A stretch of 64,000 bases of DNA. Source: Candidatus Nomurabacteria bacterium. GTDB lineage: Bacteria; Patescibacteriota; Minisyncoccia; Phycocordibacterales; UBA1006. The translations under genes and the position numbers were made by a program. Numbering within the stretch: position 1 is the first letter of the stretch; every line of letters starts with the position of its first letter. The stretch is taken from the NCBI GenBank assembly GCA_020632195.1, contig JACKGA010000003.1:3832-67831 (forward strand). Direction: 5' to 3'. Below, piece by piece: positions 34,159-37,100 of this stretch. A model generated the notes under the pieces. The model searched no databases, was not told where the DNA came from, and worked only from the letters and a program-made list of their open reading frames with translations.

Positions 34159-37100
34159 CCTAATAGGATTTCGACCAATTAGTACACCTCGGCTCAACAC
34201 ATTTCTGTGCTTTTACCTAGTGCCTATCAACCTGATAATCTCTCAGGGGTCTCAACGATATCTCATCTTGAAGTTGGCTTCCCTCTTAGATGCTTTCAGA
34301 GGTTATCCATTCCCGACATAGCTACTGGGCAATGCTACTGGCGTAACAGCCCATAGACCAGCGGTCAGTCCATCTCGGTCCTCTCGTACTAGAGACAGAT
34401 CTTCTCAAATATCGAACGCCCACAGTAGATAGGAGACCAACCTGTCTTGCGCATACATGTACATGCTTGGACTATACCATCAACCAGAATACTTTCTGGA
34501 TGGTCGGTTTGTAGTCTCTACAAGGATAGTTGTATCCTCTCGGTATTGTCGCATGAGATATGCGATTTCACCGATAACCCCGACTTGTTCACTCAATATT
34601 ACTATTGAGGACCGCCGCAATGGGGTTGGTCTTATCTCTTTTTTATGTGTTATTTAAACGAAAAAACTCGATTTTTATTCATGTGTTCTCATGATGTCGT
34701 TTGTCTGTTATGTATGCTGCGATTCAGACTGCTTAAAAGTCAAATATTTTTAACTCTTAAACGGTCTGAACCCAGCTCGCGTACCGTTTTAATTGGCGAA
34801 CAGCCAAACCCTTGGGACCTTCTCCAGCCCCAGGATACGATGAGCCGACATCGAGGTGCCGAACCGTGCCGTCGATATGAACTCTTGGGCACGACTAGCC
34901 TGTTATCCCTAGGGTAGCTTTTATCCGATAATCTTCAGCGCCGTCTCAAGGCAACTGTCGGTTCACTAAGCTCTGCTTTCGCACCTGCTCGGGATGTACC
35001 CCTTGCAGTCAAGCTGGTTTATGCCTTTACACTATCGGTACGGTTTCCATCCGCACCTAACCAACCTTTGTAGGCTCCTCCGTTACTCTTTTGGAGGAAA
35101 GCGCCCCACTCAAACTACCCGCCACGCACTGTTCCCGTCCGTTTTTACCGTCCAGGTTAGAATATGCCCAAAATAAGGGTGGTATTTCACTGGCGACTCC
35201 ATGCAAACCAGAATCTGCACTTCAAAGTCTCCCACCTATGCTGCGCGTATCACAAACATATTCAATACGAAGCTGTAGTAAAGCTCCTAGGGTCTTTTCG
35301 TCTAACTGTGGGTAGGCGGCATCTTTACCGCCATTGTATTTTCACCGAGCAAGTCCTCGAGACAGTTCCCCAGTCATTACACCATTCGTGCGCGTCTGAA
35401 CTTACCAGACAAGGAATTTCGCTACCTTAGGACCGTTATAGTTACGGCCGACATTCACCAGGGCTTATACAACCCAGCAATAAGACGAATCTTATCACCA
35501 TTCGTATTTAACCTTCTGGCATTGGTCAGGTGTCACCCCCTATACATCCTCTTGCGAGTTCGCAGGGAGCTGTGTTTTTGATAAACAGTTGCCAGGGATC
35601 TTTCGCTGCGGCCTTCTGTACCGAAGTACAGTGAGGCAAGCCTTATTCCGAAGTTACGGCTGCTATTTTGCCGAGTTCCTTGAGGACCTCTCACTCGTTC
35701 GTCTTGGTCTTCTCGACCCTCCCACCTGTGTCGGTTTACGGTACGGTTTGCCGTATATTGAAGCTTAGAGGATTTTCTGGGAAGGCTCTTCATATATTTT
35801 ACATGCCCGAAAGCACGCATTGATGCTACACACGACCTTGATGATGCCCGGATTTGCCTAAGCATCAGATCTCGTGTCACAAACACTCATCCGATAGAAT
35901 GCATATATTTATTTCCTCCGTCTCCCCATCGCATATACGACAAGTCATGGAATATTAACCATGTGTCCATCACCTTCGGCTTTTCGCCATTGGCTTAGGA
36001 CCGACTAACCCCGGGATGATTATCATCGCCCGGGAACCCTTGGGATTTCGACGCACAGGGATTTCACCTGTGTTGCGGTTACTTGTGCCAACATTCTCAC
36101 TTGTCAACGCTCCACCGTGGGTTACCCCTTCGGCTTCAACGCAGATGACAACGCTCTCCTACCACTTATAATAAATTATAAATCCGCGAATTCGGTACGA
36201 CACTTAGCCCCGATCATTTACGGCGCAAGATCTCTTGACCAGTGAGCTGTTACGCTATCTTTAAAGGATGGCTGCTTCTAAGCCAACCTCCTGGTTGTCG
36301 GAGAAATTTCACCTCCTTACTTGCACTGAGTGTCGATTTGGGGACCTTATTCGGCGATCTGGGCTGTTTCCCTTTCGTCTAATGGACCTTCGCGCCCATA
36401 GACTAACTGCCATGCTATTAATCCTTGGTATTCGGAGTTTGGTAAGCTCGGCGCCCGTGAAGGCTATCCGATACTATCCAGTGCTCTACCCCCAAGGGGA
36501 ACACATGACGCGAACCCTAAAGCTCTTTCGGAGAGAACCAGCTATTACGTAATTCGATTAGCTTTTCACTCCTTACCACAAGTCATCCGAACGAGTTGAA
36601 CGACGTATCGGTTCGGGCCTCCATCCGCTGGTCGGCTGACTTCACCCTGCTCATGGTAAGCTCATCACGTTTCGGGTCTTATCCTTGCTATATATATTTC
36701 GCCCTATTCAGACTCGGTTTCCCTATGACTCCAGCGCGGAACGCCTTAGTCTACAACAAAGATAAACTCGTTGGCTCATTCTTCAATAGGCACGCCGTGG
36801 TGGTGCTAGGCACCACTCCGACTATTTGTAAACATACGGTTTCAGGTCTATTTCACTCCCCTCACAGGGGTTCTTTTCACCTTTCCCTCACGGTACTATT
36901 CTCTATCGGTCTTGAAAAGTATTTAGCCTTACCAGTGAGTACTGGCAGATTCCCCCAAGCTATTCGTGTCTTGAGGTACTCAGGAGTAACGATAAAAAGT
37001 TGTATAGATTTCGGATACGGGACGATCGCCCTCTATGGTGTACCGTTCCAGGTACTTCTCCTATCCATACAATTTGTAACTTTTTTCATATTATGCGAGC

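Follow-up and report, generated by a model that had tools for sequence, protein, structure and literature searches.

A compact group I intron without an endonuclease gene very probably interrupts a Patescibacteria 23S rRNA gene at position 2593

Group I introns inserted after position 2593 of the 23S rRNA (Escherichia coli numbering) occur in chloroplasts as well as in bacteria. The Cr.LSU intron of the Chlamydomonas chloroplast encodes the endonuclease I-CreI. In cyanobacteria, Haugen et al. (2007) described L2593 introns in Synechococcus C1 and C9 and in Thermosynechococcus elongatus, which measure about 745 nucleotides (nt) and carry both a LAGLIDADG gene and a P7.1/P7.2 extension of about 65 nt (PMC1995217). 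For the Candidate Phyla Radiation (CPR), the survey by Tsurumaki et al. (2024, J Bacteriol) counts 968 insertions in 23S genes, of which Rfam assigned 433 to the group I introns, 222 of these being devoid of an open reading frame (ORF). Position 2593 is among the frequent CPR insertion sites, under the name 23IS12, and LAGLIDADG_1 predominates there among the ORF-containing insertions; the same CPR sites hold ORF-containing and shorter ORF-less insertions with an extremely high similarity outside the ORF (PMC11270868). We have analyzed a window of 64,000 nt from Candidatus Nomurabacteria bacterium (contig JACKGA010000003.1; all coordinates below are those of the window), where an insert of 309 nt on the minus strand (34452..34760) divides a 23S rRNA gene at this position. 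A first, sequence-only reading had described the insert as an ORF-less group I intron, and our comparisons make a group I intron of the 2593 lineage very probable, in a compact form with no endonuclease gene, no P7.1/P7.2 and P9 nearly deleted.

Compared by description, the insert shares with the cyanobacterial L2593 introns and with Cr.LSU the site between U2593 and C2594, a group I ribozyme and short P2 and P5 helices, and longer relatives of the insert encode homologs of the Cr.LSU endonuclease. It differs from the cyanobacterial introns, again by description, in its 309 nt, in the lack of an ORF, in having just AAA between P7 and the 3′ strand of P3 (P3′), and in an extension of 140 nt in the loop of P1. 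No categorical difference separates it from the CPR introns of 23IS12 (PMC11270868), which are alike in host group, gene, site, ORF-less forms and sub-threshold Rfam match; the window intron is distinguished by the missing P9 and by a closest match, among the GTDB matches listed, of only 83% identity over 94 nt (locus L023; L and P numbers of this form are our own labels). Since ORF-less introns at 2593 are already catalogued in CPR bacteria (PMC11270868) and L2593 introns in cyanobacteria (PMC1995217), the finding is a known sort of intron. The sequence-only reading had likewise noted that rRNA introns are reported in CPR bacteria and that 2593 is a target site of I-CreI-type endonucleases, and both points agree with the data given below.

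The limits of the insert are sharply defined. A global alignment of the 23S gene with E. coli rrlH leaves a 309-nt block, present in the window only, directly after E. coli 2593, between U2593 (window 34761) and C2594 (window 34451), which is exactly where the sequence-only reading had set the split; the sequence features and coordinates that it quoted are all present. The Rfam large-subunit alignment puts a 313-nt insert at the same place, inside the stem of helix 93 of the peptidyl-transferase region, as had also been proposed. The 5′ exon, with the sequence ...GAGCUGGGUUCAGACCGU, ends at 34761, and the 3′ exon, CGCAAGACAGGUUGGUC, begins at 34451. Numbered so that intron nt n corresponds to window position 34761-n, the insert opens with UUAAGAGU (in a longer read UUAAGAGUU) and closes with GUAUG, its final base being G, and together with its flanks it folds far better than shuffled sequence (z = -7.4). 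Ligation of the exons would give the junction ...GGGUUCAGACCGU|CGCAAGACAGGUUGG (GACCGU|CGCAAG), and, as an indirect check on the predicted splicing, the 30-mer spanning this junction is found uninterrupted in 26 metagenomic contigs. These contigs include 23S genes 86-88% identical to that of the window and without an intron at 2593, so that the intron is optional among relatives. The nearest 23S genes without it (L143 and L147) are interrupted instead at two other places, seen as breaks of their alignment at spliced positions 2038 and 2608; the distribution of introns over related genomes is patchy.

The assignment to the 2593 lineage comes from comparison with other introns of this site. A scan of one genome per GTDB species with the pattern ATAGTC-N(8-38)-CGYRAGACAGKTYGGTC returned at least 119 stretches, and the matches listed come mostly from metagenome-assembled genomes of Patescibacteria; Acidimicrobiia, Omnitrophota, Chloroflexota and further groups contribute the others. 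In at least 107 sequences (105 scan loci, the window and L122, a close relative), both ends of an intron placed at this very exon junction could be located, and these inserts range from 213 to 835 nt among the matches listed. A covariance model (R1) made from 24 introns of this site, from the guide through the 3′ exon, yielded a single match in the 64-kb window (34444..34621, minus strand), which extends over the full length of the model (positions 1-197) with 101.2 bits and E ~3e-29; as the model was built without the window and L122, this match places the insert in the 2593 lineage. L122, which was found through SecY synteny (SecY 83% identical, same gene order, 23S exons 95% identical), carries a homologous intron of 334 nt at the same site, and the compensatory changes between the two in P2, P5 and P8 indicate that selection acts on its structure in this lineage.

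A local search of 451 nt with the general Rfam model Intron_gpI, the comparison that the sequence-only reading had proposed, also recovers the core (34447..34673, minus strand; 28.5 bits, E 1.9e-5), and aligns at high posterior probability the blocks J6/7-P7 (GUAGAGACUA), P3′, P8 and J8/7-P7′ (GGUAUAGUCC); taken alone, this sequence match is suggestive only. Other group I introns at other 23S positions, with 68-78 bits and above the gathering score, were seen at L009:4777-5005, L063:3621-3900 and L022:1810-2064.

Covariation was assessed in a MAFFT alignment (A2) of 26 ORF-less members which was not fitted to any structure, and to which the pairing counts below refer. Over P1, P10 and P2 to P8, 91% of the cells are paired, compared with 37-39% in slid controls (partners shifted by 1-3 columns), and 25 of the 45 pairs have changed on both sides. 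On the minus strand the helices make up a group I core, in which the P3-P7 pseudoknot encloses P4, P5 and P6 and P8 comes after them. The P2 hairpin (CUCAAUA-GUAA-UAUUGAG, 34592..34609), closed by a GNRA loop, covaries in all of its seven pairs, and so do the five pairs of P3, formed by GUCGG (34580..34584) and CCGAC (34503..34507). The next segment (34540..34574) holds P4 (UCGGU/ACCGA), which is 98.5% paired and nearly invariant, around J4/5, P5 (UCGCAU/AUGCGA; 4/4 pairs covary) and J5/4. The base pairs of the P6 hairpin (GAGGAUA-CAAC-UAUCCUU, 34522..34539) are conserved, with one of them covarying (GC in 22 members, AU in 4). P7 is 100% paired: its 5′ strand GACUA (34512..34516), preceded by the conserved J6/7 GUAGA, is invariant in the 26 members, corresponds to the Rfam consensus AGACUA and pairs with UAGUC (34470..34474). 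Just AAA stands between P7 and the P3′ strand, and the P8 hairpin (CCAGAA-AGUA-UUCUGG with its base, 34482..34501) covaries in 4/4 base pairs and shows two compensatory changes with respect to L122. J8/7 (UGAUGGUA) and the 3′ strand of P7 together occupy 34470..34481, where UAUAGUCC is likewise invariant (26/26) and fits the Rfam consensus. Both GUAGAGACUA and UAUAGUCC are thus invariant in the family and align to AGACUA and AUAUAGUC of Rfam, which is compatible with a guanosine-binding P7, invariance being no proof of function. The insert finishes with a vestigial P9 region and the terminal G (34452..34469); this omega G at 34452, already pointed out in the sequence-only reading, is invariant in all 26 members.

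Of the five internal helices listed in that reading, four (CUCAAUA-GUAA-UAUUGAG, CGGU/ACCG, CCAGAA-AGUA-UUCUGG and GGAUA-CAAC-UAUCC) are found in this structure. The fifth, AACCCC/GGGGUU, exists as a string and also appears in the minimum-free-energy fold; it was rejected, being paired in 38% of the cells, as in the slid controls, and overlapping the covarying P3.

As for coding content, the longest sense-strand ORF inside the insert has 46 amino acids (34480..34620), in keeping with the earlier statement that no sense ORF of 60 amino acids or more, and no homing endonuclease, is present. The ORFs of 46, 53, 66 (antisense) and 90 amino acids that overlap the intron gave no Pfam match and no endonuclease remnant; a single weak RING-finger match (E 0.016) was regarded as a chance hit. 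Longer relatives at 2593 (L036, L042 and L080) hold, between P4 and J6/7, ORFs of 160-180 amino acids with a single LAGLIDADG_1 motif, homologous to I-CreI and I-MsoI (E ~1e-20 to I-CreI chains), and the endonuclease gene is therefore an optional feature of the 2593 lineage. P7.1/P7.2 is not found in the window intron, where AAA alone lies between GACUAC and CCGAC; the relatives L056 and L039 do have this extension, an insert of 55-65 nt between P7 and P3′.

The only new detail is which segment of the intron guides splicing. At intron nt 141-151 (window 34620..34610), the sequence UUGCG|GCGGUC is complementary to both exon ends. Its first part, UUGCG (nt 141-145, 34616..34620), forms P10 with the 3′ exon CGCAA, and covaries with this exon tetraloop. 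The second, GCGGUC (nt 146-151, 34610..34615), is the internal guide sequence, pairing in P1 with the 5′ exon GACCGU in such a way that G146 makes a U.G wobble with the last exon base. An unbiased scan, which takes in each intron the position with the longest contiguous pairing to both exon ends, settles for the large majority of the family on a conserved stretch some 40 nt 5′ of P4, which reads NCACG|GCGGYC in most members. The splice-site pair is U.G in 26/26 members and the next three P1 pairs are present in 25-26 of them. P10 follows four variants of the exon, CACG/CGUG, UUGCG/CGCAA (the combination of the window, L122, L111 and L012), UACG/CGUA and UCGCG/CGCGA, with covarying pairs that count CG 20/UA 5 and AU 22/GC 4. 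P2 lies directly 3′ of the guide strand. In 11 family members, among the matches listed, just 2-27 nt separate the splice site from this distal guide; they have no 5′ extension and this is their sole guide, from which it follows that the distal guide suffices. The other intron lineage at 2593 has a homologous guide 8-18 nt from the splice site. By its sequence, UUGCG|GCGGUC is then to be considered the canonical P10-P1 guide, and the catalytic one.

The remaining part of the insert is its first 140 nt, and here a second pairing with the exon is found. A hairpin at the 5′ splice site (34723..34770) joins exon positions -10 to -1 and intron nt 1-8 with nt 21-38; its cells are paired in 93% and 10 of its 17 pairs covary. 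An exon change of G to A is answered in the hairpin by C to U in six sequences, and a complement that tracks the exon (GUCUGAA, GUUUGAA or GUCUAAA) occurs in 51/51 listed members whose 5′ extension measures 30 nt or more. Its pair at -4 is often mismatched in relatives (ATCTGAA variants). By nearest-neighbor calculation, the closed hairpin has an advantage in stability of about 10 kcal/mol over P1 combined with helix B, the stem made of intron sequence only. The rest of the extension (nt 39-140, 34621..34722), an insertion in the P1 loop, is conserved with respect to L122 and absent in the 11 family members mentioned above. It holds a hairpin with a conserved loop, UUCGUUUAA, at about 34649..34667 (nt 94-112), whose loop motif UUUUCGUUUAA recurs in L023, L024, L029, L041, L067, L069, L076, L103, L116 and L122, and which may serve for a tertiary contact. 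In its 5′ part, the Intron_gpI alignment puts P1 on this UUCGUUUAA hairpin, a placement that was ruled out because the exon is not involved. The extension also contains one strand of a perfect 8-bp helix, GCAUACAU/AUGUAUG|C (34711..34718 with 34451..34458, extendable to 10 bp), in which nt 43-50 or 44-51 pair with nt 303-309 and the first base of the 3′ exon, and which would make both the 3′ splice site and the terminal G inaccessible. This end-to-end helix is part of the minimum-free-energy fold and is kept in 7/8 pairs in L122; in the family it is paired in 44-47% of the cells, the MAFFT alignment being unreliable there.

Several observations weigh against the reading of the insert as a group I intron that splices in the usual way. 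Its 28.5 bits with Intron_gpI remain under the gathering score of 50, so that the Rfam comparison of the sequence-only reading matches the core without attaining that score, and the intron does not appear in the 64-kb scan at the gathering threshold. The 2593 introns of 12 relatives likewise score below 50 bits with this model; the two CPR surveys classed group I introns by an Rfam E value below 1e-4 and not by the gathering score (PMC11270868, PMC13011429). The minimum-free-energy fold locks the 5′ splice site in the hairpin and not in P1. At the other end, the window intron is without 25 nt that are present in L122 (L122:16660-16702) and that include the P9 hairpin (AUGAAUC-UUUG-GAUUCAU), and a P9.0 of 3 bp, which covaries in relatives (AUG/CAU, UUG/CAA, UUC/GAA), is not evident in it; the loss of P9 and P9.0 could weaken the selection of the 3′ splice site. 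The deletion is flanked by almost identical repeats of the form AUGUAY (AUGUAC/AUGUAU in the window and AUGUAU in L122), suggesting that it arose by slippage or recombination. Finally, splicing with exon ligation is what we infer from the sequence, and the role given below to the 5′ hairpin is a proposal of the same kind.

These points bear most directly on the alternative of a decaying group I intron that no longer self-splices, either because it needs a host factor or because it sits in a non-functional rRNA copy. We consider this unlikely, and keep it in view because the P9 hairpin is lost and P9.0 is not evident; an endonuclease or maturase gene would be gone too, as no ORF is left, and the very stable 5′ hairpin competes with P1. 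However, the core helices, both guide strands, the U.G pair and the terminal G are all intact, the exons make up an intact full-length 23S sequence as close to L122 as stated above, and the compensatory changes with respect to L122 point to a continued selection on the structure. Short and atypical P9 regions are found as well in L005 and L043.

A further alternative concerns the guide and not the class of the intron. The sequence-only reading had taken the local 5′ hairpin as the catalytic P1 and its strand GCAGUCUGAA (34732..34723, nt 29-38) as the guide, which would leave GCGGUC as a downstream element with some other role. The pairings that it described do exist: GCAGUCUGAA pairs 9/10 with the exon UUCAGACCGU, and the first 8 nt, UUAAGAGU, pair 8/8 with ACUUUUAA, in a helix that is real, very stable and covarying with the exon variants, and in the window itself the splice-site U does pair with G. 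Across the alignment, though, this U faces A in the hairpin of 22/26 members and G in only three of them, against the constant U.G of the distal guide, which argues that the hairpin is accessory and is not the catalytic P1. Moreover, the distal guide comes directly after the strand covarying with the 3′ exon, as in a canonical P10-P1 arrangement, and is directly followed by P2, and both the 11 members that lack the hairpin and the other 2593 lineage, with its homologous guide close to the splice site, speak in the same direction. A catalytic role for GCAGUCUGAA is for these reasons highly improbable.

It is hardly credible that the insert is instead an expansion segment or intervening sequence, which would either stay in the ribosome or be removed by RNase III with no joining of the ends, leaving the 23S rRNA in fragments. 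The Intron_gpI score and the 8-bp helix that joins the two insert ends would suit such a reading. Against it, the insert is located within the helix 93 stem and not in a terminal loop as known intervening sequences are, the end-to-end helix is paired in less than half of the cells across relatives, the whole group I core is conserved and covarying with guide strands that fit both exon ends, homing-endonuclease genes of the type found in mobile group I introns are present in relatives, and CPR rRNA inserts are reported to be removed from transcripts (PMC11270868).

If the insert is a group I intron guided by UUGCG|GCGGUC, the precursor of the 23S rRNA would be processed by the standard two-step splicing initiated by guanosine. 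P1, made by the exon GACCGU and GCGGUC, would dock and present its U.G pair to the core, and guanosine would attack after U2593. Upon cleavage, P10 (UUGCG with CGCAA) would align the 3′ exon at C2594, the terminal G (34452) would take the place of the cofactor in the G site, and the exons would be ligated, restoring helix 93 with its GCAA tetraloop. The first 140 nt can be regarded as an insertion in the P1 loop in which the exon-pairing hairpin comes first. During transcription this 5′ hairpin would most likely form before P1, and would either hold or mask the 5′ splice site; the opening of its three central pairs would then let exon positions -4 to -1 switch to the distal GCGG guide, and positions -10 to -5 may remain on UCUGAA, which would result in an exon-binding helix in two parts. 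Given the higher stability of the closed hairpin, P1 would be reached at the lowest cost if the outer exon pairs stayed in place, and the frequent mismatch at -4 in the hairpins of relatives fits this partition of the exon at -10 to -5 and -4 to -1. Without an endonuclease gene, the intron would be inherited vertically or lost, with no homing by itself.

A comparable situation is offered by the Tetrahymena pre-rRNA, where P(-1) is an alternative helix that competes with P1 and is made of exon sequence only. Like P(-1), the 5′ hairpin takes up bases of the 5′ exon that P1 requires, and can in this way hide the 5′ splice site or regulate it; unlike in P(-1), the competitor strand of the window intron is intronic, conserved and exon-tracking, and could coexist with a 4-bp P1 as a guide in two parts. 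For a natural group I intron, such a divided guide may be new to the literature, and the conserved exon-tracking hairpin, to which we can only attribute a putative role, might be the sole feature of this intron that is new. The broader idea that a sub-lineage of the 2593 introns, mostly from CPR bacteria, gained a P1-loop module whose exon-tracking hairpin works as a built-in switch or as a second guide holding the exon, is put forward tentatively, as we see it as a possibility on the doubtful side.

With respect to the locus, the intron host is a complete bacterial 23S rRNA gene on the minus strand (34158..37461; Rfam LSU_rRNA_bacteria, 2444.8 bits, model positions 1-2925) with a length of 3304 nt including the insert, and it is followed by a 5S rRNA gene (33890..33997, minus strand; Rfam). 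No 16S rRNA gene and no tRNA genes were found across the window (1..64000), and the absence of a 16S in 64 kb implies that the 23S-5S pair is unlinked from the 16S gene. The pair is located downstream of a ribosomal-protein/SecY cluster, in an order shared with L122. In more distant relatives examined through SecY synteny (P0009, P0012 and P0010), the 23S gene is not beside SecY, and presence or absence of the intron is not readable in that way. Among named sequences, the best matches of SecY itself (gene at 43045..44328, minus strand) come from Nomurabacteria, Paceibacterota and Parcubacteria, with 62-68% identity, because of which we place the host among Parcubacteria; judging by these sequences it is a CPR/Patescibacteria bacterium of the Parcubacteria type. 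Between a mechanosensitive-channel gene and the 23S gene there is an ORF of 307 amino acids (38210..39133, minus strand), for which no Pfam match was obtained and no counterpart was found in the syntenic region of L122. A second insertion interrupts the 23S gene at 37072..37177 (minus strand), with a core hairpin at about 37088..37152; it has about 66-106 nt, and is placed at E. coli position ~283, between positions 312 and 313 of the Rfam large-subunit model. This insertion, which matches no Rfam family, folds into a long and almost perfect hairpin (z = -4.9) and is common to the close relative, as L122 aligns through it; it has the look of an intervening sequence or expansion segment, not of an intron.

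In practical terms, the annotation of the 23S gene of this bacterium should show two exons, with their junction at 34761/34451. Genome-wide scans that apply the gathering threshold of Rfam miss the window intron and the whole family with it, and rRNA pipelines may as a consequence truncate or mis-size the 23S gene. The corrected guide matters for the design of splicing assays or for any use of this small ribozyme. For the biology of these bacteria, the locus is a further case of a compact intron with no endonuclease in the peptidyl-transferase region of a CPR ribosome, in agreement with the published surveys, and the conserved 5′ hairpin would be a modest lead on how the binding of the 5′ exon may be controlled or stabilized in a large, fast-folding rRNA.

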